IMG/VR virus record: IMGVR_UViG_3300041955_000884
Span: 32,001 to 96,000 of that record
Length of the DNA stretch: 64,000 nt
Source of the DNA: a virus
Direction: 5' to 3' (one strand)
Positions within the stretch are counted from its first letter, which is position 1. Each line of letters begins with the position of its first letter. This document shows, piece by piece, positions 35,859 through 55,185 of this stretch. The notes below the pieces were generated by a model, which ran no database searches, was not told the DNA's origin, and saw nothing but the letters and a program-made list of their open reading frames with translations. A program made the position numbers and the translations under genes.

Positions 35859-37200
35859 CGTTTCGGTCTGGAGCGAGCGGGCGAAGCGCTGGGGCTGCGG
35901 CTGCGTTGACCTGCGGCTGACGCCGGACAGGTTCGATGCTGGCACCAAGATCGAGTGGGATGGCCTCAGCCAGGGGCTTGACCGCGTCGTACCGAGTGAC
36001 TTCCACAGCGACAGGCGGCGTATCCTCGATTTCGGCTGTGGCGCTGGGCGGTTCTGCGGCTTCCTCGCGAGCGGCGGCCACCATGATGTCGTCGGATACG
36101 ATCCCTGCGCCGAACTCATCGCGCTGGCGGAGCCGACGCCGGGCGTGGAGTTTACGACGGAGATGCCGGCTGGGGAATTTGCTCTGGTATGGTGCTTCGC
36201 CGTCCTCGGCGGCCTGACGGATGCGCAGCTCCCCGAGGCGGCCAGCCAAATCGCGGGGGCGCTGGCGCCGAACGGCACGCTGTTCCTGGCAGAGAATACC
36301 GACACGACGGCCTATCAGCGCGGGATATGGCGCATCCGGCCAGATGCGCAGTACGCGGAGTGCTTCAAGGCGGTCGGCGTCGGGCTGGCGGCCATCGGCG
36401 TGCACAGCTCCGGCGGCGCCGACACGACGATGTTCTGCGGGAAGCGTACCACGGGGACGATGGAAATCACCATTGACAATCGTGGGGTCAAGCGGCCGTT
36501 TTTCTGCCGCTGCGGGACATCGGACCAGAACGTGATGAACCAGGTGCTTAGATCGCGGGATCTGGACCTGGAGACGCTGAAGCGCTGGCCGGACATCGAG
36601 CGGTGGCTACAGGCGCATCCGAAGCCCCTCATCGTAGATGCCGGGGCGAACGTCGGGGCGGCATCGGTGTGGTTCGCGCTGAAGTACCCGCAGGCGCGGA
36701 TTGTCGCCATTGAACCGGAGCCGTCGAACTTCGCCATGTTGGTGAGGAACGTCATGGGCCTCCGGGTCGAAGTATTCGAAACCGCGCTCCAGGGGCGCCC
36801 TGGATACGTCTCGCTGTTTCACCCGACGGGCGATCCCGTCGATGGCATGGGCCACGCCGCCTTCAGGACGCGCCCGGCGGATTCGTCGTTTGATCCGCGA
36901 CGCGTCGGCGGTTCCGTCGCGGGAATTACGATGGAGTGGCCGCTTGTGCTTCCTGGCGTGACGCCCTTCATCGCCAAGCTCGACATCGAGGGCGCCGAGT
37001 CGGACGTGTTCTCCGGCGACACCTCGTGGATCAGCCGCTTCCCGGTGCTCATCGTCGAACTGCACGACGGCATCTATCCAGGGGAGCGGCTATCGCAGTC
37101 CTTCCTCAAGGCCGTGGCGCCCCTGGACAGGGACTTCGTGGTGAGGGGGGAACGGGTGTTCTCGATCGCCAATTGGCTGGGGAGAGAGCCGTGCCGATAG
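35851..37200 (+). CDS. Fused class I SAM methyltransferase + FkbM methyltransferase
   Basis: ILDFGCGAGR; VDAGANVG, IEPEPSNF, KLDIEGAE. Confidence 0.88.
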   Translation: MPDVSVWSERAKRWGCGCVDLRLTPDRFDAGTKIEWDGLSQGLDRVVPSDFHSDRRRILDFGCGAGRFCGFLASGGHHDVVGYDPCAELIALAEPTPGVEFTTEMPAGEFALVWCFAVLGGLTDAQLPEAASQIAGALAPNGTLFLAENTDTTAYQRGIWRIRPDAQYAECFKAVGVGLAAIGVHSSGGADTTMFCGKRTTGTMEITIDNRGVKRPFFCRCGTSDQNVMNQVLRSRDLDLETLKRWPDIERWLQAHPKPLIVDAGANVGAASVWFALKYPQARIVAIEPEPSNFAMLVRNVMGLRVEVFETALQGRPGYVSLFHPTGDPVDGMGHAAFRTRPADSSFDPRRVGGSVAGITMEWPLVLPGVTPFIAKLDIEGAESDVFSGDTSWISRFPVLIVELHDGIYPGERLSQSFLKAVAPLDRDFVVRGERVFSIANWLGREPCR

Positions 37201-39108: not shown

Positions 39109-39338
39109 GCGACACCGCCAGCACCGTCGCCATCGTGCCCGGGCGCCCGATACCCTGGGAGCTAAAGCAAGCCGCCTACGAGGAAGGACGCCGCGCCCGT
39201 ACCGAGAAAATCGGCCCCATTATCAAGGCCTTCCACACCCGCCAGCGCAAGAAGCTCGAAGCCGCCGGCGTGGATATGATGGACCCAGACGCGATTGCCG
39301 AGGCCATGCGGAACATGGTAGAGGACGAGCCGGATTGA
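39105..39338 (+). CDS. Hypothetical protein
   Basis: Coupled ORF. Confidence 0.55.
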   Translation: MSDTASTVAIVPGRPIPWELKQAAYEEGRRARTEKIGPIIKAFHTRQRKKLEAAGVDMMDPDAIAEAMRNMVEDEPD

Positions 39339-39772
39339 GCGACACGAAGCCAATGAATCCCAAGGACATCATCGGCAGCGACAAGCTCCCGCTACATCTC
39401 TGGCCGACCACGGCAACGGCGCTCGGCTGCCTCGCCTTCCTGGATGGCGCCCTCAAGTACGGCCGCAGCAACTTCCGCGTCGTCGGTGTCGGGGCGTCTA
39501 TCTACTATGACGCCGCAAAGCGCCATCTCGATGCCTGGTTCGAAGGCGAGGAGGAAGACCCGCAAAGCGGCCTGCCGCACCTCGCCCATGCGTTGGCCTG
39601 TATCGCCATCATGGTTGACGCCGCCGCCGCCGGGAAGCTCAACGATGACCGCATGGCGCCCGGTGGCTACCGTGCCCAGGTCGAGGCGCTGACGCCGCAT
39701 GTGGCGCGGCTGAAGGCGCTTCACGCCGGTCATGCGCCGCAACACTACACGATCAAACAGGGGCCGACATGA
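39335..39772 (+). CDS. dATP/dGTP diphosphohydrolase domain protein (DUF5664-like)
   Basis: NPKD.IG..K, GALKYGRSNFR, RHL.AWFEGE..DPQSGLPHLAHA. Confidence 0.85.
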   Translation: MSDTKPMNPKDIIGSDKLPLHLWPTTATALGCLAFLDGALKYGRSNFRVVGVGASIYYDAAKRHLDAWFEGEEEDPQSGLPHLAHALACIAIMVDAAAAGKLNDDRMAPGGYRAQVEALTPHVARLKALHAGHAPQHYTIKQGPT

Positions 39773-40233
39773 AGCCGAGCGTCTATCTCGCAGGACCGAT
39801 TGCCGGGCTGCATTACGATGCCGCGCAGGACTGGCGCAGCGCAGTGCGTGATGCCCTGGCGCCAGAAATTGACGCCTTTTCACCCCTGCGGTCGAAAGAG
39901 TATCTGCGGAAAGAGGGCGTCCTTCGCGACCAATACGCCTATGCGCCGCTTTCCAGCGACCGCGGCATCACGACGCGCGACCATTTCGACTGCCAGCGGT
40001 GCGACATCATCTTCTGCAATCTTCTCGGCGCCAATTCCGTGAGCATCGGGACGGTCATGGAAATCGCGTGGTCCTACTCCTATAGCAAGCCCCTCGTGCT
40101 TCTGATGGAGCCGAGCGGAAACATCCACGACCATCCGATGGTTCGCGAGGCCACAGGCTTCCGCGTCGAGAGCCTTGAACAAGGTGTCGAAATCGCGCGC
40201 GCCGTGCTTCTGCCGCGCCGTCCGGGGGCCTAA
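39769..40233 (+). CDS. Nucleoside 2-deoxyribosyltransferase/hydrolase
   Basis: VYLAGPI, SPLR, RD..D, SIGTVMEIAW. Confidence 0.85.
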   Translation: MKPSVYLAGPIAGLHYDAAQDWRSAVRDALAPEIDAFSPLRSKEYLRKEGVLRDQYAYAPLSSDRGITTRDHFDCQRCDIIFCNLLGANSVSIGTVMEIAWSYSYSKPLVLLMEPSGNIHDHPMVREATGFRVESLEQGVEIARAVLLPRRPGA

Positions 40234-43607: not shown

Positions 43608-44573
43608 TCACGGTGCTCCCGTAACACTAACCGCCTTCGTGCCGAGGAGGCGCCAAGCGCCCTGCCAGAAGGCGCAGAGCTCGAGCAGGTAGTCTCCCGC
43701 TGGCAGCGCGAACACAGCCTCGCCAGCCGTGCCGTACGCCGCGGCGTAGCTGATGCCGCTCACCGGCCTTCCGTTCCAGTAGCCCTTCCCGGCGGCGTCG
43801 AGCACGTTGACGCATGACCAGTCCCCGCCGGTGTCCGTCCAGACGAGCATCAACAGGCCGAGGATAGCGGAGCCGACGGTTATGGTTCCGGTCGGGTAGC
43901 CGAGCGCGGCCCCCACGATGGGATCCAGCGTGGCGAACATCGCCTGAGCCATCAGGTCGTAGCCGGATTGATTCGGATGGATGCCACTCCAGACGTTGAA
44001 CATCTCAGAGTAGGACAGATCGGCGTGCCATGCGGCGCCCATCGCCTCCGTCTCGGCGTTGAAGTCAACGAGCGAAAGGCCAGCCGCCTGAGCGGCGCCG
44101 CGAACCATGGCCGCTTTGTCGTCGATGACGGCCGAGGCCCACGACGCATCGACCGCGTTCGGCGTCTCCAGCACGAGGCGCTTGCCAGCGGCCTGCGTGA
44201 GACGGACGATCTCGGCCAGCGGCGCCTGTACAGCCGCCGGCTCGTCGTTCATGCCGAGCGACAGCAGGACGACCGAGGCTGGAGTCGCGGCGACATATGC
44301 CAGCCAGGAGTTCGCCACGCCGCCGGTGCCATCGAGCCAGTTCTGGAAAGTCGTTCCCGATACCCCGTTGTTGTTGACGACCACCAGCGGCCCGTATTTC
44401 GCCTGGAGAAGCGCCCCAAGACCAGCCGGTGCTGGCGTCGCCACGACCGAGGAAACCGTGCCGTCGGCGCCGGGGGCCGGACCCGTGCTGGCGCCGTCGA
44501 ACGTCAGCCCGAAAACCGTGCTGTCGCCATTGACGTCAACGACGAGGGGACTCGATGCGCTAGATTCGGTCAC
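43608..44573 (-). CDS. SGNH/GDSL hydrolase
   Basis: GDST, NGVSG, GMND, GIHPN..GY. Confidence 0.85.
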   Translation of the reverse strand: MTESSASSPLVVDVNGDSTVFGLTFDGASTGPAPGADGTVSSVVATPAPAGLGALLQAKYGPLVVVNNNGVSGTTFQNWLDGTGGVANSWLAYVAATPASVVLLSLGMNDEPAAVQAPLAEIVRLTQAAGKRLVLETPNAVDASWASAVIDDKAAMVRGAAQAAGLSLVDFNAETEAMGAAWHADLSYSEMFNVWSGIHPNQSGYDLMAQAMFATLDPIVGAALGYPTGTITVGSAILGLLMLVWTDTGGDWSCVNVLDAAGKGYWNGRPVSGISYAAAYGTAGEAVFALPAGDYLLELCAFWQGAWRLLGTKAVSVTGAP

Positions 44574-45175
44574 GGAGCCAACTCCACGTTGTGATACAGC
44601 CACGAAGCAAAATCCGCGCGTGTCTCGCTGTCAAGGAACTCCAGCCCGGCCCTGAGCAGCTCCGCCGTCGTCGGCTGCCGCGGCGGCTTCAGCGGCCGCA
44701 GGGGGGTGCCCTTCTTGCCGGAGTAGTTCGCTGGCCGGTCACGCTTCTCGACGTTGCACCTCACGCAGCAGCTCAGGATGTTGTCCCACACCGTCTGGCC
44801 GCCAGCCGCCCGCGGGATAACGTGGTCAAACGTCAGATCCTCGCTCTGGAACCGCTCGCCGCAGTACTGGCAGCGGTAGCGGTCCCGGAGGAGGATGGAG
44901 CGGCGACAGAACTTCGGCGCCGCATTGATTGGCGCGTACGACCGGAGCGCCACCACCTTCGGCACATGAATCGTGGTCGACGGCGAGCGGAACACCTCCG
45001 GCCACTCGTCCACGACGGTCACCGTCTCCTTGAAGACGGCGCGGATGGCTTCCTCGGGGCCGATAAGCGAGAGCGGCCAGGTACTTAACGGCCGAAAGTC
45101 GCTGTTCAGCACGAGACAGCGGCGCGCGTGGCGGTCGCGTCTATCAGGCTCAGCAGTGGCGACGGCGGTGCTCAT
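44570..45175 (-). CDS. HNH endonuclease at the 3' end of the tRNA array
   Basis: LVLNSDFRPL, LRDRYRCQYCG, DHVIPR..GG...WDN....C..CN..K. Confidence 0.92.
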   Translation of the reverse strand: MSTAVATAEPDRRDRHARRCLVLNSDFRPLSTWPLSLIGPEEAIRAVFKETVTVVDEWPEVFRSPSTTIHVPKVVALRSYAPINAAPKFCRRSILLRDRYRCQYCGERFQSEDLTFDHVIPRAAGGQTVWDNILSCCVRCNVEKRDRPANYSGKKGTPLRPLKPPRQPTTAELLRAGLEFLDSETRADFASWLYHNVELAP

Positions 45176-45215: not shown

Positions 45216-45290
45216 TGGTGCTCTCGGGCAAGAATCGAACTGCCGTTTACCGCTTACGAGGCGGTAGTCCTGCCACTGAACGACGAGAGC
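45216..45290 (-). tRNA. tRNA-Thr(CGT)
   Basis: ACCGC-CT CGT AA-GCGGT; CCA encoded. Confidence 0.85.
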
Positions 45291-45328
45291 GTATTGAGCC
45301 GGTTAACTGGCTGCGTTATACTGCGCCT

Positions 45329-45772
45329 ATGCCCCACCGCACCAAAGAAGAAAATGTCGCTGGCGTCCTAGCATGGCGGCGCCGCGCGAAGCTGCGACTT
45401 ATCGAGGCGTTCGGTGGCGGCTGCGGCATATGCGGATATAACCGCTGCGCCGCTAACATGGCGTTCCATCATCTTGATCCGTCTCAGAAGGGCGTCGGAT
45501 TTGGAAGCGCTCAGTCTCGCTCCTGGGCGAAAGTGATACACGAGGTCAGAAAGTGCGTGATGCTGTGCCACAACTGCCACGGCGAATATCATGCCGGCCT
45601 TATCACTGACCTTTCCGCTTGCCCGCGCTTCGATGAAACGTGCGCCACCTACAGCACCCGACCAACGAAAGGGAAGACGCGGAGAACTGGAGGATTGGGA
45701 GGGAATCGAACCCGTCCTATGACGCAGATTAAGAGCCTGCCGGCCTCACCAGAGTGCCAACCAATCCGCTAG
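45329..45772 (+). CDS. HNH endonuclease, antisense within the tRNA array
   Basis: C.ICGY..C...FHHLDP..K...KC.MLC.NCH.E.H; promoter TTGAGC-N17-TATACT-N6-ATG. Confidence 0.85.
   Translation: MPHRTKEENVAGVLAWRRRAKLRLIEAFGGGCGICGYNRCAANMAFHHLDPSQKGVGFGSAQSRSWAKVIHEVRKCVMLCHNCHGEYHAGLITDLSACPRFDETCATYSTRPTKGKTRRTGGLGGNRTRPMTQIKSLPASPECQPIR
45688..45767 (-). tRNA. tRNA-Lys(CTT)
   Basis: GCAGG-CT CTT AA-TCTGC; CCA. Confidence 0.8.
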
Positions 45773-45849
45773 TGGTGCATGTCCCGAGATTCGAACTCGG
45801 CCTGTGCGGGATTTGAAGCCGCCGCCTCCTGCCTCTGGGCTAGACATGC
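45773..45849 (-). tRNA. tRNA-Leu(CAA), short variable arm (TCA register possible)
   Basis: GCGG-CTTCAAATC-CCGC; CCA. Confidence 0.6.
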
Positions 45850-45853
45850 GAAC

Positions 45854-45925
45854 TGGCCTCGCCGCCCGGATTCGAACCGGGAAGCCCAACCTTCGGAGGG
45901 TCGGGTGCAGTCCATTGCCGGCGAG
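45854..45925 (-). tRNA. tRNA-Arg(CCG)
   Basis: CGACC-CT CCG AA-GGTTG; CCA. Confidence 0.8.
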
Positions 45926-45929
45926 AAAC

Positions 45930-46000
45930 TGGTGCCCCGTGCAGGGATTCAACCTGCCGTCTTTGGCTTAGAACGCCTAGGCCGTCGCAGCGGACGGGGC
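45930..46000 (-). tRNA. tRNA-Arg(TCT), atypical
   Basis: GGC-GT TCT AA-GCC; acceptor GCCCCGT; CCA. Confidence 0.6.
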
Positions 46001-46005
46001 GAGCA

Positions 46006-46078
46006 TGGACCTCCCGGGACGAATCGGACGCCCTCATCGAGTTTCGTAGACTCAAGTCCGCAATCCAGCGGCGGGAGG
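46006..46078 (-). tRNA. tRNA-Arg(ACG)
   Basis: TGAGT-CT ACG AA-ACTCG; CCA. Confidence 0.8.
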
Positions 46079-46082
46079 AATT

Positions 46083-46157
46083 TGGGGGCGCGTGCGGGGG
46101 TCGAACCCGCCTCTCTCGGGTGAAGGCCGAGGCATCTCGCCGGAAATGTAACGCGCC
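46083..46157 (-). tRNA. tRNA-Glu(TTC)
   Basis: CTCGG-CC TTC AC-CCGAG; CCA. Confidence 0.8.
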
Positions 46158-46162
46158 GAAGT

Positions 46163-46237
46163 TGGTGGAGCTGACCGAAGTCGAATCGGTGTTACGAGAC
46201 TGCCAGCCTCGCGTCCTTGCCACTGAACGACAGCCCC
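46163..46237 (-). tRNA. tRNA-Ala(GGC)
   Basis: G3:U70; CGAGG-CT GGC AG-TCTCG; CCA. Confidence 0.85.
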
Positions 46238-46312
46238 GAAGCTGTGGTCGGCGTTTGATGCCTATATCCGCCGACACGCCCCATACATGGCAAGGGCGGC
46301 GCCTCGTCAAAC

Positions 46313-46387
46313 TGGTGAAGGGCGTTGGAATCGAACCAACCGTCTCCGCCATGTCAAGGCGGTGCTCATCCGATAAGCTGGCCCTCC
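46313..46387 (-). tRNA. tRNA-Val(GAC)
   Basis: CCGCC-TT GAC AT-GGCGG; CCA. Confidence 0.85.
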
Positions 46388-46388
46388 G

Positions 46389-46459
46389 TACCTCGCCGTC
46401 GAATCGAACGACGGTATCCGCGGTGTGAACGCGGCGCCCTGCCATTGAGCGAGCGAGGC
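46389..46459 (-). tRNA. tRNA-Val(CAC), CCA not encoded
   Basis: CCGCG-TT CAC AC-CGCGG; abuts the next tRNA. Confidence 0.8.
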
Positions 46460-46463
46460 AAAG

Positions 46464-46538
46464 TGGTCGGGGATGCAGGAATTGAACCTGCGTCGCCGCC
46501 TTCCAAGGGCGGAACCTGGGCCACTAGGCTAATCCCCG
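46464..46538 (-). tRNA. tRNA-Pro(TGG)
   Basis: CCGCC-CT TGG AA-GGCGG; CCA. Confidence 0.85.
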
Positions 46539-46542
46539 TAGA

Positions 46543-46613
46543 TGGCGCCCCCGGCTGAAATCGAATCAGCATTCCTTGGCTTAGGAAGCCAGGGCCGCTC
46601 CATCGGCGGGGGC
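46543..46613 (-). tRNA. tRNA-Arg(CCT)
   Basis: TGGC-TT CCT AA-GCCA; CCA. Confidence 0.8.
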
Positions 46614-46617
46614 AATC

Positions 46618-46695
46618 TGGTCAGCGTGCGGTGATTCGAACACCGGCTCTCGTGCGCCCGAGGCACGCGCTTTGGCCTGGCTAAGCTACACGCTG
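46618..46695 (-). tRNA. tRNA-Pro(CGG)
   Basis: CGTGC-CT CGG GC-GCACG; CCA. Confidence 0.85.
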
Positions 46696-46702
46696 TCGAA
46701 GC

Positions 46703-46778
46703 TGGCGCCCCAGACGGGTTCCGACCCCGCCAACATCGGCTTGACAAGCCGAGACCCCCGCCAGGGAGAATCTGGGGC
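46703..46778 (-). tRNA. tRNA-Asp(GTC)
   Basis: TCGGC-TT GTC AA-GCCGA; G73; CCA. Confidence 0.75.
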
Positions 46779-46782
46779 AATC

Positions 46783-46864
46783 TGGAGGACGGCGGAGGTG
46801 ACGATCCCCTTGCGGCCGGATTAAAGGTCCGGTCCAGCGCCTCGCTGGTATACGCTCGCCGTCC
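46783..46864 (-). tRNA. tRNA-Lys(TTT), atypical D arm
   Basis: CCGGA-CC TTT AA-TCCGG; CCA. Confidence 0.65.
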
Positions 46865-46869
46865 GAAAG

Positions 46870-46944
46870 TGGTTGCCGCACGCGGTACTGCCCCGCGAGC
46901 CTCTCGCTTATCGGGCGAGCGCACGACTTTCATGCTCTACGGCA
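46870..46944 (-). tRNA. tRNA-Ile(GAT)
   Basis: CTCGC-CC GAT AA-GCGAG; non-canonical T loop; CCA. Confidence 0.75.
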
Positions 46945-46945
46945 A

Positions 46946-47030
46946 TGGTGAGTTGGTGTGGTGCTGCCCCACGCGCCCGAAGGCGAAGGATTTACAGTCC
47001 TCCTGCCGGAGCTGCCGGCTTTACCAACCC
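46946..47030 (-). tRNA. tRNA-Tyr(GTA)
   Basis: GAGGA-CT GTA AA-TCCTT; variable arm; CCA. Confidence 0.8.
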
Positions 47031-47036
47031 GTGAAC

Positions 47037-47107
47037 TGGAGCCGCGTCTCGGTGTTGCGCCGAGCCTCCGTCCATACCAAGGACGGGTGCAGACTGCTGC
47101 GCGCGGC
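47037..47107 (-). tRNA. tRNA-Thr(GGT)
   Basis: CGTCC-TT GGT AT-GGACG; CCA. Confidence 0.75.
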
Positions 47108-47110
47108 AGA

Positions 47111-47198
47111 TGGTGGAAGGCCCCGAGCACGATTCGGACACCTTTCGGTGCGCACGGTTTAGCAGACCGGCCCCGCAACCTTACGGGCTGTGCCTTCC
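47111..47198 (-). tRNA. tRNA-Ser(GCT)
   Basis: CGGT-CT GCT AA-ACCG; long variable arm; CCA. Confidence 0.8.
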
Positions 47199-47204
47199 AG
47201 AAAG

Positions 47205-47294
47205 TGGCGGACGGCGGCTAGTGCTGCCCTGCAAACCCGTTGGGGTCTCATCGGTTTTCGAGGCCGAGCCGCAGACTGCTGCGGGTCACCGTCC
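47205..47294 (-). tRNA. tRNA-Ser(CGA)
   Basis: TCGG..CT CGA AA..CCGA; long variable arm; CCA. Confidence 0.75.
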
Positions 47295-47406
47295 ATGTGC
47301 GCTCCAGCGCACTGTATCGCGGCTAATGTGCTCTTGAGAGCCGATTTTGCGGGCGCCGCATTCGCTGCGGTCGTTCAAGACTGGAGGCGGAGGCCAGCCC
47401 CCATAG

Positions 47407-47494
47407 TGGCGGAGAGCGGGCGCGCACGATGCCCATGCCTTGCGGCACCAGCCGGGTTCAAACCGGCGGTCGGAACCTTCCGACTTCACTCTCC
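47407..47494 (-). tRNA. tRNA-Ser(TGA)
   Basis: GCCGG-TT TGA AC-CCGGC; variable arm; CCA. Confidence 0.8.
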
Positions 47495-47498
47495 GTAA

Positions 47499-47586
47499 TG
47501 GCGGGCGGCGGGCGCAGTCGAAGCCCTGGCCTTTCGGCCTCATCGCGCTTCCAACGCGAGCCGGCGACCCCGCCGGTTCACCGCCC
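47499..47586 (-). tRNA. tRNA-Ser(GGA)
   Basis: TCGCG-TT GGA AG-CGCGA; variable arm; CCA. Confidence 0.8.
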
Positions 47587-47590
47587 AAAC

Positions 47591-47675
47591 TGGTAGCCCA
47601 CGAAGGAGTTGCACCCTCACGCCGCGATGGCACGAGTTCCTAAGACTCGCGTGTCTGCTGTTCCACCAGTGGGCC
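47591..47675 (-). tRNA. tRNA-Leu(TAG)
   Basis: CGAGT-CT TAG GA-ACTCG; CCA. Confidence 0.85.
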
Positions 47676-47680
47676 TAACT

Positions 47681-47764
47681 TGGTACGCCCGGGGAGAGTT
47701 GCACTCCCACGTCATGCGACACAACGCCCTCAACGTTGCGCGTCTGCTGTTCCGCCACGGGCGC
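47681..47764 (-). tRNA. tRNA-Leu(GAG)
   Basis: CAACG-TT GAG GG-CGTTG; CCA. Confidence 0.85.
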
Positions 47765-47765
47765 T

Positions 47766-48275
47766 CTATTTCGGTGCTGGCCAAATGTCGGCCAGGGTCG
47801 GACGACGCTCGCCGAGGACGAGCGACAGCCTGGATTTCGAGTGCGCTGGCGCTAGGCGGTCGAGCCGTTGCGCAGGCTGGGGCACATTGGCCAACGTCGC
47901 CTCCGAGATCGGCTCGGCATATTGGCCAATCTTGTGCAGGCCCCAGGACGCCGCGACGTGGAATTCGGGCTTGCGGGAGCCAGACGGACCCGGCTTCGCC
48001 ACTGCTCTGACGCACGCCACCGCGCCCCAGCAGTGGCCGCAGGCGGCGCGGAGGTTGTTGCAGTGCCCGCAGACGAGGTGGTGCATTCTCGTGCCCGTGG
48101 GATACTCGTAGCGCCTCGTGCGCGGCAGGATGTGGTCCCGCGTGGCGCTCCGCTTGGCGTGGCCCTCGGGCAGCATCGGGTCGCCGCACTGGGGGCAGCA
48201 GACGGTCTCGCCCATCGCCTTCGCGAGGTCGAACAGGAGCAGCTTCCTCTTCGTGAAGCCCTGCGGCGCGCTCAT
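47766..48275 (-). CDS. HNH-like endonuclease within the tRNA array
   Basis: CPQCG..M, ATRDHILP, CGHCN; promoter TTGCCT-N16-TAGGCT-N6-ATG. Confidence 0.7.
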   Translation of the reverse strand: MSAPQGFTKRKLLLFDLAKAMGETVCCPQCGDPMLPEGHAKRSATRDHILPRTRRYEYPTGTRMHHLVCGHCNNLRAACGHCWGAVACVRAVAKPGPSGSRKPEFHVAASWGLHKIGQYAEPISEATLANVPQPAQRLDRLAPAHSKSRLSLVLGERRPTLADIWPAPK

Positions 48276-48313
48276 GGCGGAAGCCTACCACGCTCGGCGC
48301 CGGAGGCAAGATG

Positions 48314-48397
48314 TGGTGCCGGCGGCAGGCATCGAACCTGCACGCTGCGCGCGGCCCGGTTTAAGCGGGCTGGGTCTACCGATTCCCCCACGCCGGC
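48314..48397 (-). tRNA. tRNA-Leu(TAA)
   Basis: GCCCG-CT TAA AC-CGGGC; CCA. Confidence 0.85.
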
Positions 48398-48400
48398 GAT

Positions 48401-48475
48401 TGGTGGCGCTAGGGGGATTTGAACCCGCCCTTTCCCGGTTGAGAGCCGAGCGGCCTGCCAATAGCCGATAGCGCC
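48401..48475 (-). tRNA. tRNA-Glu(CTC)
   Basis: CTCGG-CT CTC AA-CCGGG; CCA. Confidence 0.85.
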
Positions 48476-48479
48476 GAAA

Positions 48480-48554
48480 TGGAAGCGGGTGCCCGACTCG
48501 AACGAGCGTGAAGGAGGTCAAAGCTCCCCGTCCTGGCCGCTGAACGAACCCGCC
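48480..48554 (-). tRNA. tRNA-Gln(TTG)
   Basis: GGGAG-CT TTG AC-CTCCT; CCA. Confidence 0.8.
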
Positions 48555-48559
48555 GCGAT

Positions 48560-48664
48560 TGGTAGGCGATGACGGTGCCGACCCGTCTCGAACGCCGCCA
48601 GTGCGTAAGGGACCGTCGCCCCCTGGGCCGTCGCCCGCGTTCTGCCCAGCCGGGGCAATCGCCT
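48560..48664 (-). ncRNA. tRNA-like RNA with a branched domain replacing the anticodon loop
   Basis: Acceptor AGGCGAT/ATCGCCT-A-CCA; D and T arms present; no 7-nt anticodon loop. Confidence 0.65.
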
Positions 48665-48702
48665 GCCGAGTTTCTAGCACGTCACATCCGATACCGCAAT
48701 AG

Positions 48703-48776
48703 TGGAAGCCGACCAAGGTGTCGAGCCTTGCCCGACGAGCTTCAGAGGCTCGCGTGCCCAGCCGGGGCGATCGGCC
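48703..48776 (-). tRNA. tRNA-Gln(CTG)
   Basis: CGAGC-CT CTG AA-GCTCG; CCA. Confidence 0.8.
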
Positions 48777-48779
48777 GAA

Positions 48780-48858
48780 TGGTGCTCCTGGCCGCGATTC
48801 GAACGGGCGACCCCCGGGATACAAAGCCGGTGCTCTGGCCAGACTGAGCTACAGGAGC
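48780..48858 (-). tRNA. tRNA-Thr(TGT)
   Basis: CCGG..TT TGT AT..CCGG; canonical D/T arms; CCA. Confidence 0.8.
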
Positions 48859-48859
48859 T

Positions 48860-48936
48860 TGGGGTGACATGCCGGTACCGCCCCGGCCCAAACTGGGCTC
48901 ACAACCCAGCGCAATCGCTTGCCTGCCCATGTCACC
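48860..48936 (-). tRNA. tRNA-His(GTG)
   Basis: G-1:C73; CTGGG-TT GTG AG-CCCAG; CCA. Confidence 0.8.
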
Positions 48937-48944
48937 ATACGCAA

Positions 48945-49323
48945 TCCATCCCGTCGCATCTATGCTCGCCTCGGTGTTACCCGTGGCTAGCCGTATCGCA
49001 CGGCGAACGGGAGCCGGGGCTACCGTCTGTTTCAACGGTGTCGCCGGAGAGGTTTCGAGCCGGCATCGCTATGCTACGGCGGCATCGAAGACGGCTTGCC
49101 GCCGGCGGAGGGGTTAATCCCGCGCATCACCACCCTGGGTCGGGCTCCGCAATCCCCTGATGACTTAGCCGCTTCGCCGCCGGTTCCATGCCCAGCGCCG
49201 CTCGAAAGCTCCCTGCGGGCTAGCCTCGGCGCGCATCCGAAGCCAAGCTGGGCCAGCCTTAGAACCACCGCAGCGCTGGCCCGTCGCCCGCGTGGAAGGC
49301 TTCGCGTCTGTCCGCGATGCCGC
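48945..49323 (-). ncRNA. Large structured ncRNA, possibly GOLLD-like
   Basis: About 380 nt with no credible ORF; many helices including GCGGCATCG/CGATGCCGC long-range pairing. Confidence 0.6.
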
Positions 49324-49330
49324 AGGAAGG

Positions 49331-49406
49331 TGGAGAAGCGCCACAGAGTCGAACTGCGTGATGCGGGGTTGCAATCCGCCACCCAAGGCCGTCGGGTTCG
49401 CGCTTC
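49331..49406 (-). tRNA. tRNA-Cys(GCA)
   Basis: GCGG..TT GCA AC..CCGC; U73; CCA. Confidence 0.8.
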
Positions 49407-49411
49407 AATCT

Positions 49412-49485
49412 TGGCAGGGGCGTGAGGAATTGGACCCCATCTAGCTGGGTTGGAGCCAGCCGTGCTGCCGTAACACTTCGCCCCC
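49412..49485 (-). tRNA. tRNA-Trp(CCA)
   Basis: GCTGG-CT CCA AC-CCAGC; CCA. Confidence 0.85.
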
Positions 49486-49489
49486 AAGT

Positions 49490-49564
49490 TGGCTCCAGAG
49501 GCAGGACTTGAACCTGCAACCTCACGGTTAACGGCCGTTTGCTCAGCCATTGAGCTACTCTGGA
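49490..49564 (-). tRNA. tRNA-Asn(GTT)
   Basis: ACGG-CC GTT AA-CCGT; CCA. Confidence 0.85.
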
Positions 49565-49683
49565 AAACTCGTCTGGCGCTCGGCCCTCTCGGGCCAGACT
49601 TTCCGGGCTACCCACCAGCGCGTTGCCATGGCTCGCTGGCCTCTATCCGTTATGGACTCGGGGTGACCGAGTCACGCCATGCT

Positions 49684-49759
49684 TGGAGCGGGATGCCGGG
49701 GACGATCCGAGCTTCACTGGTTTGGAAGACCAGCACAGTTACCGAACTGCAAATCCCGC
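49684..49759 (-). tRNA. tRNA-Gly(TCC)
   Basis: CTGGT-CT TCC AA-ACCAG; U73; CCA. Confidence 0.8.
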
Positions 49760-50334
49760 GAAATGGTGCCAGCGCCTGGTTTCGCGCCAGGGTCTTCGCT
49801 TTTTCGGAGCGACGCTTCCACTAGGTTAGCTTCGCTGGCCATTGGCAGGGAAGTCCACGCCTTGCCGAGCTTGATGCGGCTTATCATGTCCTCCGTCACG
49901 CGAAAACTTGTTGCTATCGAACGGCCAGTTCGGCCAGATGCCAGGAAGCGGCGAATCTCATGCACATCACGCTCCGACAGCTTAGCGTTTCCATTTGACG
50001 CCCCCACGGAGGGCGGCAGGTTGCCCTTCGGGCGACGCCCCTTCCTGGCACTGTCCCGCATATTTTCGGCGTTCGTTCCGAGCCACAGGTGACGCGGATT
50101 GCAGCAGGGCGGGTTGTCGCAAGAATGGCAGACGCAAAGGCCGCAGGTCGGTCCCTTCGCTATCTCGTAAGCGACGGCATGTGCCCGCCGAGAGCGGAGC
50201 GTTGGCCTGCTTTGCTTGAACCGACCGTACCCGTCATCGTCAATCTGGCGAGTCCACGGCCAGCACTCGTCAGGCCCGCGGATGTCAACCTTTGACCAAA
50301 AGCGCGCAATCGCCTTATCGTCGTGAATAGCCAT
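49714..50334 (-). CDS. HNH homing endonuclease whose ORF reads into tRNA-Phe and tRNA-Gly
   Basis: RFWSKVD...CWPW, AH..AY, CHSCDNP.CCNP.HL.LGT..EN; GAGGAG SD. Confidence 0.9.
   Translation of the reverse strand: MAIHDDKAIARFWSKVDIRGPDECWPWTRQIDDDGYGRFKQSRPTLRSRRAHAVAYEIAKGPTCGLCVCHSCDNPPCCNPRHLWLGTNAENMRDSARKGRRPKGNLPPSVGASNGNAKLSERDVHEIRRFLASGRTGRSIATSFRVTEDMISRIKLGKAWTSLPMASEANLVEASLRKSEDPGAKPGAGTISRDLQFGNCAGLPNQ
49764..49839 (-). tRNA. tRNA-Phe(GAA)
   Basis: TCGCT-CC GAA AA-AGCGA; CCA. Confidence 0.85.
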
Positions 50335-50432
50335 ATCGGCCGTCTCCTCGGCTGGCGTGGTCAGGACCGCCGGGGCGTTCACAGCGCTCCGGCGGCCCGA
50401 GATTTCTAGTCGAAATGTCCAGCCGAAGCAAT

Positions 50433-50504
50433 TGGTTGCAGGGGAGCGAGTCGCACGCTCTGTGGAAAATTTATGAGACTTTCTGGCCTCTGAGGCTCCC
50501 TGCA
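50433..50504 (-). tRNA. tRNA-Met/Ile2(CAT)
   Basis: AAAGT-CT CAT AA-ATTTT; CCA. Confidence 0.7.
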
Positions 50505-50509
50505 ATAAC

Positions 50510-50583
50510 TGGTGGGCGCGCGACGAATCGGACGCCGGTCAAGCCTTTATGAGAGGCTCGCTCTTCCATTGAGCTACACGCCC
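50510..50583 (-). tRNA. tRNA-Ile2/Met(CAT)
   Basis: AGCCT-CT CAT AA-AGGCT; CCA. Confidence 0.8.
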
Positions 50584-50596
50584 GTCGCGTGGAATT

Positions 50597-50671
50597 TGGA
50601 GCTGACGCCCGGTACCGCCCCGGGTGATACTGATTGGCAACCAGTCCCGCAACCTTTCGCGGACCGCCAGC
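50597..50671 (-). tRNA. tRNA-Gly(GCC)
   Basis: ACTGG-TT GCC AA-TCAGT; U73; CCA. Confidence 0.75.
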
Positions 50672-50733
50672 TAAGACATGAACGAATCTCGCCCGACCTG
50701 GCGACGACACGGCCAGGTCGGGCATTCGTGAAA

Positions 50734-50808
50734 TGGTGGAGGCGCGGATAGTCGAAATCCGAGACAGCAATCTTGCAAGGATAGCCCGCTGGTCCGCAGC
50801 TCGCCCCC
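50734..50808 (-). tRNA. tRNA-Ala(TGC)
   Basis: G3:U70; CT TGC AA loop; CCA. Confidence 0.75.
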
Positions 50809-51094: not shown

Positions 51095-51539
51095 GCCCTG
51101 AATCGCACCGGAGCGGCGCGTTCGCGATTTCGAGGAGGACGGTGGCGTGGCATGCTTGGTCCAGGCGGCACCAGCAGGCGAGGTCCTTGCCGCGAAGTTC
51201 GCGGCGCACATCATCAATGGTTGTCGCGTCCATGCTGGGAATTTTTCCTTTTGGCCATGGGAGCGCAACAGGAATCCACGCGCCTTCCTTGGCGAGCATC
51301 GAGCGGAACGCAGCAACCGCCAGTTGGGCGTCCATTGGAAAGCGCTGCCCATTCTGCATGCGATCAGAATGAACGACGAACGGATTGCCCCACTTCGATC
51401 CGCGTCCGACGTAGACGGCTCCCTCTGGCATCCGCCAGCCCTTCGTCCGGCGCCGCTGGATTCGCCGTGGAGCGAAGGCGCAGACGCGGGCCTCACGGCA
51501 GCGCGCTGGCCCTGGGCAGTAGTCGCATGCCTCGGTCAT
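51066..51539 (-). CDS. DUF4326-family protein
   Basis: VYVGRGSKWGNPF...ELRGKDLACWC...CHA.VL. Confidence 0.85.
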   Translation of the reverse strand: MTEACDYCPGPARCREARVCAFAPRRIQRRRTKGWRMPEGAVYVGRGSKWGNPFVVHSDRMQNGQRFPMDAQLAVAAFRSMLAKEGAWIPVALPWPKGKIPSMDATTIDDVRRELRGKDLACWCRLDQACHATVLLEIANAPLRCDSGLDTPPPPPA

Positions 51540-52138
51540 CAATCCGCCGCCTGGGCGAACAGCGGCGCGTCGCGACGCCGGAACACCGTGACGACCCGGA
51601 AGCGGTGGTTCGTGCTCTTCACCATGCCGATGACGGCTTCCATCTCGAAGGCGTCCTTGCGATACATCGGTAGCACTTGGTCGAGCCAGACGATGTGCGT
51701 TCCTGGCGCCAGCCGCCCCAAGGCGCTCATCACCGCATTTCGCTTCACCATCGTCGTCCGGTAGCGCTCGGCGTCCTCGACGGAGTAGGGCGGGTCGGCC
51801 AGAACAAGGTCGTAGCGCTCCAGTGGCACGCGCTCCAGCGTCTGGGCGTCGTCCACGAACGTCGGCGCCAGCTCCGCGTTCACGTCCACGGTATCGCCGG
51901 GCATCGCGGCAAGGTCCACGCGGCCAGAGAACAGGTGCAGGAGGCGCTCCTTGTCGGGGAACAGAGCCTTGATTCGTCGAAGATATCCGGCCGGATAGCC
52001 GCCGTAATAGGCCGACTTCACGCGGTAGTCGTTCCCCATAATCCAGGTGCCGACGACGCGGCCGTCCTCGCCGATAAACAGGCTCCGCGGAAAGCCCGTG
52101 GCGCGGACGTAGTTGTCGATGCGCTCCTGCCAGTTCAT
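51539..52138 (-). CDS. Small amino-methyltransferase (DPPY)
   Basis: YYGGYP.GYL, LHLFSG, LADPPYS. Confidence 0.75.
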   Translation of the reverse strand: MNWQERIDNYVRATGFPRSLFIGEDGRVVGTWIMGNDYRVKSAYYGGYPAGYLRRIKALFPDKERLLHLFSGRVDLAAMPGDTVDVNAELAPTFVDDAQTLERVPLERYDLVLADPPYSVEDAERYRTTMVKRNAVMSALGRLAPGTHIVWLDQVLPMYRKDAFEMEAVIGMVKSTNHRFRVVTVFRRRDAPLFAQAAD

Positions 52139-52184
52139 GGCAGCACCGCCCTGCCAATGGTCTCCGAACGCGCCATGGGCGGCG

Positions 52185-52409
52185 TCAGCGCGGCCAGAGG
52201 CGGATTTGGTGTGGCGGGGCGTAGCATTCGCCGCCGACATCCAGCCTTACGCGCCAGCGCCTCCAGCCGAGGCCATATTCCTCGAAGGCGATGATCTCGC
52301 CGGCTTCGCCTGTCCACGGATGGGCGCCGACGATACAGACACGGTCGCCGGCCTTCATCCGGTTCTGCGGCGGGATGGCGACGAAATCGTTGGGCTTCTT
52401 CACGCTCAT
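52185..52409 (-). CDS. Small KOW/SH3-like protein
   Basis: GDRVCIVG.HPW.G..GEI. Confidence 0.55.
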   Translation of the reverse strand: MSVKKPNDFVAIPPQNRMKAGDRVCIVGAHPWTGEAGEIIAFEEYGLGWRRWRVRLDVGGECYAPPHQIRLWPR

Positions 52410-53478: not shown

Positions 53479-55185
53479 CTAGCTCGGCGGCGCTGGCAAT
53501 CCAGAAGATGGCGCGAAAGGCGTCGCTGGCATTTCGACATTTGCCGCCGTCGGCCGATCGCAGGTTACCTCCATGACGCCAAGATGAGTCGTGGCATACG
53601 TAACGTCGAGGTCGCACCATGCAGTGAACCCCGCCTCCCTGGCCTTGACAATCATGAACAGGTCTTCGGAAAAGTAGCGCTCAGGGCTGCCGGAGTCGAC
53701 CGCGACCTCGTAATTATCCATCAACCAAGCACCGAACGGCGTGGCGTCAATCGAGGCGAGCACGTCATCTGGTGGGACCTTCGTGAAATACTCCCGCATC
53801 TGGTTTTTGAACGCGTCGAGGTTGTCTTTCCCAGCCCAGCGGTAGCATTCCGCGTACCATGGCCATCCGAGCCGACGATATATATCGGCCCTGACGAGCA
53901 GTACGCCTCCCGGCAAAAGCTCGGCTTCAACGAGGCCACCCTTCGCCAACTCCTCCGGCGGCGGCGGAGGTCCCTTGAGCCGGCCGAGCGTGGAGTACGG
54001 CTTCGTTCTCCGATTGTACGTGGCGCCGACAATATCTTTGTTGTGCCGCAGAAACTTGACAATAGTGTCTGGCGGCACGACCATGTCGCTGTCCAACCAG
54101 AAAACATAGTCGCAGTTCTGCTCAAGGGCTATCTGCACGATACTGTTCCTACCGTGCGTGACAGACGAAGTCTGAACGTTGAGTAGCGTGCAATCCAGGC
54201 CTGCAAGTGATGTATAGCTGGCCAGCGCCGCGATGCAGTTGGCGGTGGTCGCCTCGTACGTTCTACCACTTGGGGTTGCAATGGCAACCCGCAACTTCCT
54301 CGGCTGCTGTTTGGCGAGGTCGGCCATCATCTTCACGGCGTGGGCCTTGACCTCAGCATACGCGGCGTAGGGCGGCTCGGCGCCAGCGGGGGCGGCCCAG
54401 CGCTCCAGGAAGGCGGGGTGCTTGAGGTGCGCGATGCGGGCTGCGGCGATTTGCTGGCGGCGCGGCAGATCGGCCAGGGCGCGCTTGCCTTCATCGCCCT
54501 CCTTCCCCCAGGCAGCCTCGATGAGTTGGATGCCCTCCTTCAGCCGGACGGGATTGAGGGCGTGGAAGAAGTCGCACCAGAAGGGAAGCTCGTAGCGACC
54601 GCCGGTGGTGTCGCCCTGGCCATCGGGGGCGCCGAGCTTCACGTCAATCTCGAAGCGGACGCCGAGGAGAACGCCGAGCTGGTCCCAATGGGTGTCGATG
54701 AACCAATAGGGGTAGCAGGGCGGCATCACGAAGCCGACGGCGCGCTCCATCTGGCGGGTGATGATGGGGAAGGCGGCGTGGTCGGGATGGAAGTCGTCCT
54801 TGGGGTAAGCGACGCCGATGCCGTTCGGGAGCTTCGCGACGGCCTCGCGGAACTTCGCCGGCCAGCCATCGGTCTCCATGACGCGGTCGTTGGCGCAGAA
54901 CCAGAGGATGTCGCCCTTGGCCTCGAGGGCGAGCTGGTTGATCTTCTGCCCGAGCGTGAGCGGGCGTGGCCAGCGGAACACGTGGACATTGTGGCGGAAG
55001 GGCGGCTCGTCGGCCGAATGCGTCTCATCGTCCTCGTCTATGGCGATGCACGCTTCCCACCGCTGGTCATCGCCTGCGGTGTCAACGAGTGAGTAGATAA
55101 GGCGCCGCAGCCCGTCCGGTCGCCCTCTCTCGGGGATGAGGACGGAAATCATCGGCTTCTCGCGGCGCAGTCTGGCCTCGCCCAT
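53479..55185 (-). CDS. Tandem GT-A (GT2-like) glycosyltransferase
   Basis: ISVLIPERGRP...ND...YWFID; second domain GRN, WLDSDM, SEDLF. Confidence 0.82.
   Translation of the reverse strand: MGEARLRREKPMISVLIPERGRPDGLRRLIYSLVDTAGDDQRWEACIAIDEDDETHSADEPPFRHNVHVFRWPRPLTLGQKINQLALEAKGDILWFCANDRVMETDGWPAKFREAVAKLPNGIGVAYPKDDFHPDHAAFPIITRQMERAVGFVMPPCYPYWFIDTHWDQLGVLLGVRFEIDVKLGAPDGQGDTTGGRYELPFWCDFFHALNPVRLKEGIQLIEAAWGKEGDEGKRALADLPRRQQIAAARIAHLKHPAFLERWAAPAGAEPPYAAYAEVKAHAVKMMADLAKQQPRKLRVAIATPSGRTYEATTANCIAALASYTSLAGLDCTLLNVQTSSVTHGRNSIVQIALEQNCDYVFWLDSDMVVPPDTIVKFLRHNKDIVGATYNRRTKPYSTLGRLKGPPPPPEELAKGGLVEAELLPGGVLLVRADIYRRLGWPWYAECYRWAGKDNLDAFKNQMREYFTKVPPDDVLASIDATPFGAWLMDNYEVAVDSGSPERYFSEDLFMIVKAREAGFTAWCDLDVTYATTHLGVMEVTCDRPTAANVEMPATPFAPSSGLPAPPS

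Follow-up and report, generated by a model that had tools for sequence, protein, structure and literature searches.

The 64,000-nucleotide stretch of DNA analysed here (the window) comprises positions 32001-96000 of IMG/VR virus record IMGVR_UViG_3300041955_000884, a 107,197-bp sequence of about 65% G+C that CheckV rates as 94% complete. The virus is a phage whose genes in the window include one for a major head protein and one for a portal of the T7 type (Pfam Head-tail_con, 1e-115), and between positions 45216 and 50808 it carries 39 tRNA genes packed into 5.6 kb of one strand, most of them separated by spacers of 1-6 nt. Their order is non-periodic and their isoacceptor content is broad: there are 38 distinct anticodons (CAT occurs twice) for 20 of 20 amino acids, and some isoacceptors are neighbours (four Ser genes; Leu GAG/TAG; Arg ACG/TCT/CCG). 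Co-orientation, tight spacing and such content are the properties of the long tRNA arrays defined as L-arrays, which spread horizontally, phages included (PMC8421152).

The genes differ in how readily they are detected. ARAGORN with default settings reports 25 tRNAs within 45216-50808, all on the minus strand, and a local Rfam scan adds tRNA-Phe(GAA) to that set, so that the two tools together find 26 tRNAs and 13 of the 39 units escape both. We rely on a cloverleaf finder of our own, which uses stem pairing and geometry only and applies no loop-sequence rule, together with hand parsing of the species with long variable arms; this yields 39 cloverleaf units on the minus strand. In a control run with CCA required and at most two mismatches allowed, the finder returned 26 matches for the array strand, whereas the other ~208 kb of the genome, both strands included, gave 5. 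An N-CCA end is encoded in 38 of the 39 units, the exception being Val-CAC. The acceptor stem is fully paired (7/7) in 37/39, the T stem pairs at four or more of five positions in 37/39 and the anticodon stem does so in all 39, which is the architecture of a standard elongator tRNA (acceptor, anticodon and T stems of 7, 5 and 5 bp and a 7-nt anticodon loop). The RF00005 gathering threshold (29 bits) is reached by 15 of the 39 units in the local scan and by 13 in a scan of the whole window. Units with a UGCRA-type T loop are well detected by the standard tools, and the blind spot consists of the more divergent units of the window. Since a third of the array is unseen by default ARAGORN and Rfam, tRNA totals for phage genomes can run low.

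The standard loop sequences (T54-U55-C56-R57-A58, G18-G19 and U33) are kept by only part of the array. The T loop is TTCRA in 17/39 units; the others have UGCRA, CGCRA, GGCRG, AUCGU, GUCGG, UCCRA or single oddities, and about ten units have G55. Position 33 is C in exactly five tRNAs, namely Phe-GAA, Asn-GTT, Ile-GAT, Lys-TTT and Glu-TTC. A preliminary description of this DNA had counted 39 co-oriented tRNAs, 38 of them with CCA, covering all 20 amino acids with clustered Ser, Leu and Arg isoacceptors, and had listed five C33 tRNAs and a series of T loops other than TTCGA. The counts are confirmed by the structure-only finder with hand parsing, the clusters are indeed adjacent genes, and parsing of all 39 units returned precisely those five C33 tRNAs. 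Every listed T loop is present (GGCAGTA, GGCAGCA, GGCGGTA, TGCAACT, ATCGT), as are further ones (CGCGAAA, CGCAACA, GTCGGAA, TCCRATT, TTGAATC). Its statement that the stems are intact holds for the acceptor stem in all but two units but fails for the T stem of Ser-CGA, which pairs at 2/5 and marks that unit as possibly defective.

The unusual loops recur in other genomes. Scanning IMG/VR with the unusual D arm that Leu-GAG and Leu-UAG have in common gave 29 loci. Many of them hold tRNA arrays, on unrelated contigs whose G+C content is 39-66%; most or all of the tRNAs in these arrays have the T loop U/C-G-C-R-A and a D loop with ..AGCAG or ..AGUAG instead of ..GG... A pattern made from Ile-GAU (C33 plus GGCAGTA) matched six viral contigs with a G+C fraction of 0.41-0.53, and all six matches are tRNA-Ile genes within arrays. 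Nearly all stem positions differ among the seven Ile genes, yet 70 of 70 anticodon- and T-stem cells are paired, with double compensatory changes at 8/10 stem positions, and all seven share an A-A/U-A-G-Y D loop, a feature that lay outside the search pattern. With the corresponding His pattern, 22 genuine tRNA-His genes that share GGCRGTA were recovered from viral contigs whose G+C content ranges from 33 to 63%; 18 of these genes encode G-1, 21 have C73 and all 22 have an AAG/TAG-type D loop. Among cellular genomes the Ile pattern gave 57 matches. About 32 of these are tRNA-Ile genes that belong to arrays; filamentous cyanobacteria account for most of them, and alphaproteobacterial and Verrucomicrobiota assemblies for a few. 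In the cyanobacterial arrays that carry it, this Ile is the sole rewired tRNA. The cyanobacterial matches pointed to plasmid delta of Nostoc/Anabaena PCC 7120, where the trn operon ends with a tRNA-Ile(GAU) in which the T loop is GGCAGTA, the D loop is GAAAAGTGA and position 33 is U; a single cyanobacterial tRNA-Ile used as query against plasmids gave no match, and it was the array-wide query that reached pCC7120delta. A T-arm 15-mer common to Gly and His was discarded as a collection query, its matches (at least 119) being mostly chance in GC-rich DNA.

In addition, we examined how the two sides of the elbow vary together, taking 328 distinct tRNAs from the array of the window and from those of the viral loci that were fetched. 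Because these sequences are related and the rule for GG or AG in the D loop is crude, the following figures are descriptive. A D loop without GG occurs in 123/147 tRNAs with G55 and in 8/181 others (Fisher 2e-54), and when only arrays that hold both kinds are considered, in 47/58 and 1/126, respectively (Fisher 6e-32). The direction of the association is unambiguous. G55 tRNAs are found in 20 of 20 amino-acid families, and in some phages every tRNA has G55 (30/30 in L191, 24/24 in L186). The 54/58 pair is almost always U.A, G.G, C.A, A.U or A.A, while C56 and R57 stay.

By simple wobble rules, 57 of the 61 sense codons can be read with the 38 anticodons, and these codons account for 97.6% of the 15,169 codons in 26 long phage open reading frames (ORFs); CCU, CCC, AUA and GUA are left unread. 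The tRNAs with unusual loops decode major codons of the phage (GGC, GAC, ATC, TTC, TAC), and Ser, Tyr, Ile, Phe, His and Asp are served in the array by such tRNAs only. Identity elements are retained as well: both Ala genes have G3:U70, His has C73 and an encoded G-1, the variable arm is long in Leu, Tyr and Ser (with A73 or G73), and base 73 is U in Gly and Cys and G in Asp, Asn and Trp. Across the wider data set, the discriminator base typical of each family is the same in G55 and U55 tRNAs. The set is non-redundant and near-complete and its identity marks are intact, and decay does not yield such a set.

In G006, a collinear relative known from a 26-kb fragment, the portal is 89% identical, but this place is occupied by one tRNA(CAU) only, beside a conserved Cys-rich ORF; the array is therefore an expansion or acquisition within this phage lineage. 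This difference, together with the occurrence of the Ile and His types in unrelated phages and in cyanobacteria, agrees with the horizontal transfer that characterises L-arrays. Ten loci of portal relatives contain no arrays, and no homologous array was found in GenBank phages by megablast or blastn, which gave single-tRNA matches only; in that comparison the tRNAs of D29 are standard, and Myrna has a region with an HNH gene and two tRNA genes. A methyltransferase-like gene upstream of the array (51539-52240) proved too widespread to serve as a marker of the phage, and none of the 46 loci and five whole records examined for it has an array. A protein scan with the Cys-rich ORF at 47766-48275 gave no matches. 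The HNH gene at 44570-45175 is 42% identical to Anabaena All8564 over 106 aa (E 5e-25), the neighbour expected of an L-array, and its homologues lie beside 12 other fetched arrays, phage and cyanobacterial. The HNH genes located within and next to the array probably serve to transfer arrays of this kind from one genome to another. In the preliminary description an HNH gene closed the array, in a manner reminiscent of the cyanobacterial trn operon, and the loops were attributed to selection rather than decay, subject to a search for the variants elsewhere. The closing gene is an HNH gene, but two further HNH genes and the Cys-rich ORF lie inside the array. The resemblance to the trn operon turns out to be true homology, since both the All8564-type gene and a tRNA-Ile with GGCAGTA are shared. 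The variants are not private to this genome (the Ile type is in 6 viral contigs and ~32 genomic arrays, the His type in 22 viral genes), and their recurrence in distant genomes with compensated stems supports selection.

Table 1. tRNA genes and other features of the array region, from the highest coordinate down. MFE, minimum free energy fold.
Feature	Position (strand)	Characteristics	Support
tRNA-Ala(UGC)	50734..50808 (-)	G3:U70; T loop TTCGACT	ARAGORN, parse
Hairpin between first (Ala) and second tRNA	50672..50733 (-)	very stable; no U tract	fold -31.4 kcal/mol, z -4.98
tRNA-Gly(GCC)	50597..50671 (-)	U73; T loop GGCGGTA	finder, 0 mismatches; cloverleaf MFE; missed by ARAGORN, Rfam
tRNA-Met(CAU)	50510..50583 (-)	T loop TCCGATT (C55)	ARAGORN; Rfam 56 bits
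Second tRNA(CAU)	50433..50504 (-)	U1-A72; A/U-rich anticodon stem; T loop TGCGACT; D loop CAG	ARAGORN, parse
HNH_3-type endonuclease ORF within array	49714..50334 (-)		Pfam PF13392 4.7e-7; phrog_1872 8e-28
tRNA-Phe(GAA)	49764..49839 (-)	C33; T loop CGCGAAA	Rfam 45 bits; finder, 0 mismatches
tRNA-Gly(UCC)	49684..49759 (-)	T loop ATCGTCC (A54/U58)	ARAGORN, parse
tRNA-Asn(GUU)	49490..49564 (-)	C33; standard T loop	ARAGORN; Rfam 59 bits
tRNA-Trp(CCA)	49412..49485 (-)	T loop TCCAATT	ARAGORN, Rfam
tRNA-Cys(GCA)	49331..49406 (-)	U73	own finder; cloverleaf MFE
tRNA-His(GUG)	48860..48936 (-)	encoded G-1; C73; T loop GGCGGTA; D loop with AAGC	ARAGORN, parse
tRNA-Thr(UGU)	48780..48858 (-)		ARAGORN, Rfam
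tRNA-Gln(CUG)	48703..48776 (-)	T loop CTCGACA	ARAGORN, parse
tRNA-like unit	48560..48664 (-)	perfect 7-bp acceptor stem; T arm (loop GTCGGCA); ACCA	fold
tRNA-Gln(UUG)	48480..48554 (-)		ARAGORN, Rfam
tRNA-Glu(CUC)	48401..48475 (-)		ARAGORN, Rfam
tRNA-Leu(UAA)	48314..48397 (-)	standard loops	ARAGORN, Rfam
Cys-rich ORF	47766..48275 (-)	HNH-like motif	Pfam HNH E 0.44 only; tblastx 76%/95 aa to G006
tRNA-Leu(GAG)	47681..47764 (-)	T loop TGCAACT; D loop GAACAGCAGA	ARAGORN, parse
tRNA-Leu(UAG)	47591..47675 (-)	T loop TGCAACT; D loop GAACAGCAGA	ARAGORN, parse
tRNA-Ser(GGA)	47499..47586 (-)	long variable arm; G73; 4-bp T stem	finder, parse
tRNA-Ser(UGA)	47407..47494 (-)	long variable arm; G73	finder; cloverleaf MFE
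tRNA-Ser(CGA)-like	47205..47294 (-)	D arm a 6-bp hairpin with CAGT loop; T stem 2/5, possibly defective	
tRNA-Ser(GCU)	47111..47198 (-)	T loop ATCGTGC	weak Rfam match, 34 bits; finder
tRNA-Thr(GGU)	47037..47107 (-)	T loop CGCAACA; short D arm with CAGT	finder; cloverleaf MFE
tRNA-Tyr(GUA)	46946..47030 (-)	long variable arm; A73; T loop GGCAGCA	hand parse; cloverleaf MFE
tRNA-Ile(GAU)	46870..46944 (-)	C33; T loop GGCAGTA; D loop with AAGT	finder, 0 mismatches
tRNA-Lys(UUU)	46783..46864 (-)	C33; T loop ATCGTCA; enlarged D arm	finder; cloverleaf MFE
tRNA-Asp(GUC)	46703..46778 (-)	G73; T loop GTCGGAA	finder
tRNA-Pro(CGG)	46618..46695 (-)		ARAGORN, Rfam
tRNA-Arg(CCU)	46543..46613 (-)		ARAGORN
tRNA-Pro(UGG)	46464..46538 (-)		ARAGORN; Rfam 62 bits
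tRNA-Val(CAC)	46388..46459 (-)	sole unit without encoded CCA; abuts next tRNA	ARAGORN, Rfam, finder
tRNA-Val(GAC)	46313..46387 (-)		ARAGORN, Rfam
tRNA-Ala(GGC)	46163..46237 (-)	G3:U70	ARAGORN, Rfam
tRNA-Glu(UUC)	46083..46157 (-)	C33	ARAGORN, parse
tRNA-Arg(ACG)	46006..46078 (-)	T loop TCCGATT	finder
tRNA-Arg(UCU)	45930..46000 (-)	T loop TTGAATC (G56)	finder
tRNA-Arg(CCG)	45854..45928 (-)		ARAGORN
tRNA-Leu(CAA)	45773..45849 (-)		ARAGORN, Rfam
tRNA-Lys(CUU)	45688..45767 (-)		ARAGORN
HNH endonuclease ORF antisense to array	45329..45772 (+)		phrog_2255 1.4e-21
tRNA-Thr(CGU)	45216..45290 (-)	last gene of array	ARAGORN, Rfam
All8564-type HNH endonuclease	44570..45175 (-)	closes array	Pfam HNH 1.9e-13; HNH_5

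Several of these features deserve comment. The hairpin that follows the first tRNA may be a processing or attenuation element. The second tRNA(CAU) is possibly of the Ile2 type and not an initiator. The tRNA-like unit has a D arm identical to that of the adjacent Gln-CUG, and a branched insert of about 45 nt with three hairpins replaces its anticodon arm; it may represent a paralogue that has been remodelled, or else a tRNA mimic without a decoding role. The Ser(CGA)-like unit gives a weak Rfam match to tRNA-Sec (30 bits). Read up to its first stop, the HNH_3 ORF overlaps tRNA-Phe, and the antisense HNH ORF probably has its true C-terminus before the overlap with tRNA-Lys; homologues of the latter ORF adjoin four other arrays (L226, L243, L206 and L215).

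The flanks of the array region encode a two-domain methyltransferase (class I + FkbM; 35794-37200, +), a GDSL lipase/acylhydrolase (43608-44603, -) and a family-2 glycosyltransferase fusion (53479-55185, -). At 39335-40233 (+) a gene for the N-domain of a dATP/dGTP diphosphohydrolase (7e-24) adjoins a nucleoside 2-deoxyribosyltransferase-like gene, a pair that hints at a modified DNA base in the phage. In another viral locus, L200:1063-4599 (IMGVR_UViG_3300010430_000022), an all-G55 tRNA array adjoins an RNA repair or quality-control module consisting of a LigT-like 2'-5' RNA ligase/phosphoesterase, a Ro60 (TROVE + vWA) homologue and SIR2. Ro60 is the partner of YrlA, a tRNA-like Y RNA. Outside the window, a lone tRNA-Thr(CGU) at C1:27028-27101 (+) (L320:5029-5100) is followed at C1 ~27209-27312 (+) (L320:5210-5313) by a weak YrlA match, whose 32.5 bits (E 6e-4) fall short of the 69-bit threshold.

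The account best supported by these comparisons is that the array would be a functional mobile tRNA set with conserved alternative elbow designs and five altered anticodon loops. A more specific proposal is that it is a horizontally acquired, functional set of the L-array type whose conserved alternative elbows evade loop-directed nucleases or modifiers; we give this an even chance, and the escape it invokes is plausible. The carrier would be a lytic-type phage with a T7-like portal, and the array would be transcribed as one or a few precursors. Host RNase P and 3' exonucleases would trim these to tRNAs already ending in CCA and host synthetases would charge them, by which the phage would gain its own near-complete decoding set. 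In about half of the tRNAs U55 would have given way to G55 and G18 to A18, and the 54/58 pair to G.G, C.A or A.U, with C56 and R57 kept. A G-N-R-A sequence makes the same sharp turn as U-N-R, and because of this resemblance G55-C56-R57-A58 is a plausible stand-in for the turn at pseudouridine 55 (Psi55), with A18 as its new partner. The rewired tRNAs would still fold as an L and be charged, and they would lack the universal T54-Psi55, G18 and U33 that loop-directed nucleases and modification enzymes read. C33, for its part, is adjacent to the point where anticodon nucleases acting 5' of the wobble base make their cut. Phage translation could then continue when the standard tRNA pool is attacked or depleted. 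In favour of escape, U54, U55, G18 and U33 are precisely the bases that the changes eliminate, there are phages in which the whole tRNA set is converted, and there are precedents both for evasion through the anticodon arm and for a toxin that cuts at T-Psi. Expression in the phage, charging of each array tRNA and the escape function are what we infer from sequence; charging of the Anabaena tRNA-Ile is taken from the literature (PMC8421152).

A number of observations count against the proposal of escape. No nuclease or modifier acting on the T or D loop is found in the window or beside arrays L184 and L200, and near these three arrays there are only HNH genes, a LigT-like protein, a Ro60-like protein and SIR2. 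The same tRNA types also sit in plasmid arrays. Roughly half of this array is rewired, so that an attack on the T loop would still reach the 17 standard tRNAs, and Ser-CGA and the tRNA-like unit at 48560-48664 look defective as decoders. The association of G55 with a D loop lacking GG is modest in the window alone (5/9 against 2/30 others, p 0.004 in a naive count), and the larger figures carry the caveat given with them. A consensus scan of the array strand found no promoter or terminator. Finally, the operonic Ile-GAU and Phe-GAA of Anabaena migrate aberrantly on acid gels, and their misacylation is not excluded (PMC8421152).

The main rival is that the elbow is a structurally equivalent design, either modification-independent or neutral and isosteric, with no link to defence, which strikes us as rather unlikely. 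A GNRA turn with A18 would fold stably without Psi55, m5U54 and Gm18, and would suit the bulk tRNAs of mobile elements that are unable to rely on host modification enzymes; alternatively, the loops may have drifted within the allowed isosteric space after cellular constraints relaxed. The retention of C56 and R57, that is, of the outer G19-C56 platform, in nearly all variants and the restricted choice of 54/58 combinations (U.A, G.G, C.A, A.U, A.A) fit such a design. It also accommodates the lack of a nuclease candidate near the arrays searched and the presence of the same variants in cyanobacterial plasmid arrays, which are not under phage-defence pressure and in which the rewiring of Ile only suggests an inherited lineage trait more than a response to general attack. 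However, the spread of G55/A18 over all 20 families and over all tRNAs of L191 and L186 points to systematic pressure, C33 weakens the anticodon U-turn and does not stabilise it, and to our knowledge cellular housekeeping tRNAs essentially never use G55/A18.

It is improbable that the rewired loops serve to tell self from host, with the tRNAs of the host inactivated by the phage via their standard T loop or U33 while its own rewired set is spared. A near-complete set would allow the host pool to be replaced, and some phages hold G55 tRNAs only, but the 17/39 standard tRNAs of this phage would be destroyed too, the ORFs scanned include no phage nuclease candidate, and the same tRNA types live in bacterial plasmids. 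We consider it still less probable that the units missed by ARAGORN and Rfam are duplication pseudogenes and that only the ~26 detectable genes work. The 13 units missed by both tools, the T stem of Ser-CGA, the unit at 48560-48664 without an anticodon arm and the finding that 3/26 Anabaena operonic genes are pseudogenes (PMC8421152) would fit such decay. On the other side, stems are intact in 37/39 units, no anticodon is redundant, six amino acids depend on tRNAs with unusual loops, those loops are conserved with compensated stems in distant genomes, and the Anabaena homologue is charged (PMC8421152). Since the unusual loops recur in phage and cyanobacterial arrays together with changes in their partners, we regard them as selected designs and not as decay. 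A non-decoding role, in which the unusual units are decoys for tRNA-directed nucleases and toxins or processing punctuation, has very little to recommend it: at least one unit (48560-48664) is unable to decode, but the others keep 7-nt anticodon loops, sensible non-redundant anticodons and synthetase identity elements.

Returning to the alternative elbow as a feature of working tRNAs, we tentatively suggest that the A18/G55 elbow and its G54.G58, C54.A58 and A54.U58 relatives form a distinct, undescribed class, present in all 20 families, restricted to mobile elements and invisible to enzymes that read T54-Psi55 or G18, with C33 having an equivalent function in the anticodon loop. In this phage all elbow sub-types occur alongside standard tRNAs. 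Large phage tRNA arrays and L-arrays are already known; for the paired A18/G55 change we found no description in the literature, and as that search was incomplete, novelty is not proven. The G18-Psi55 contact at the elbow is treated as almost invariant in cytoplasmic tRNAs. If true, a second, covarying elbow solution in hundreds of tRNAs of mobile elements would be a natural experiment in tRNA architecture and a ready scaffold for orthogonal tRNAs. It could also point the way to T-loop-directed defences or toxins, of which one contact-dependent inhibition toxin is the only example to date, and it offers a testable reason for the aberrant run of the Anabaena operonic tRNA-Ile on acid gels.

Non-standard loops in working tRNAs have some parallels in known systems. 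The eukaryotic initiator tRNA (A54 and A60, with C33 in plants and fungi) and mitochondrial tRNAs resemble the array tRNAs in their variable 54/58 and position 33. The former is a single specialised species and the latter belong to reduced organellar systems, whereas the paired 18/55 swap occurs across all amino-acid families and in mobile elements. As in the tRNA region of T4, endonuclease genes are embedded in a phage tRNA cluster; SegB of T4 is a GIY-YIG homing endonuclease and the T4 cluster has 8 standard tRNAs, as opposed to three HNH genes and 39 tRNAs here. The role proposed for the endonuclease is the spreading of the cluster with its flanks (T4 case cited in PMC8421152). Sphingobium phage Lacusarx and Rhodobacter phage RcXuper, of 130-150 kb, have about 25-30 co-oriented tRNAs that encode CCA, including an Ile(GAU) with anticodon loop CCGATAA (C33) and further C33-G34 tRNAs. 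Unlike the present array, these have standard TTCRA T loops throughout, apart from a single ATCGT, and the arrays lack homology at the sequence level.

The array isoacceptors also depart from the cellular consensus at positions that nucleases can read, as do phage tRNAs that escape them: T5 tRNA-Lys and PARIS AriB, a phage tRNA-Tyr and retron PtuAB, and anticodon-loop variants of mycobacteriophages (PMC10264068, PMC11555353, PMC12409363). Phage tRNAs with changes in the anticodon arm resist tRNA-cleaving defences (PMC10264068, PMC12409363). In those cases the anticodon stem or loop of a few tRNAs is altered, whereas here it is mainly the elbow (18, 54, 55, 58) of many; T or D loops are not mentioned in those papers. 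An agent of the required kind is exemplified by the CdiA-CT E479 toxin, which cuts between T and Psi of the T loop (PMC9086364).

The closest counterpart is the Anabaena trn operon. Like the phage array, it has dozens of co-oriented, tightly spaced, non-periodic tRNA genes for most isoacceptors, a patchy distribution that implies horizontal transfer, an adjoining All8564-type HNH gene, and a tRNA-Ile(GAU) with GGCAGTA and an A18-type D loop. Of the 26 operonic tRNAs of Anabaena, 23 (including Ile-GAU) are charged in vivo and were recovered in polysome fractions (PMC8421152); T or D loops go unmentioned in that paper. The HNH gene all8564 is co-regulated with the operon, which is stress-induced under TrcR (PMC8421152). 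In contrast to the operon, the array is borne by a phage and not by a plasmid, encodes CCA in 38/39 genes when most cyanobacterial array genes lack it, and has about 20 rewired tRNAs as against one, with C33 on a different set of tRNAs. Cyanobacterial L-arrays (L216, L250 and others) have C33 in Leu-GAG (11/12) and Gly-GCC (9/10) and also in Ile-GAU, always with G34 next. Closest in style to the array of this phage are the CCA-encoding arrays of L260 (a 983-kb contig of an alphaproteobacterial metagenome-assembled genome, MAG) and L223 (a Hyphomicrobiales MAG, G+C fraction 0.65), in which GGCAG and ATCGT T loops and a C33 Glu-UUC are present; neither these two nor L232 is related to the phage at the protein level.

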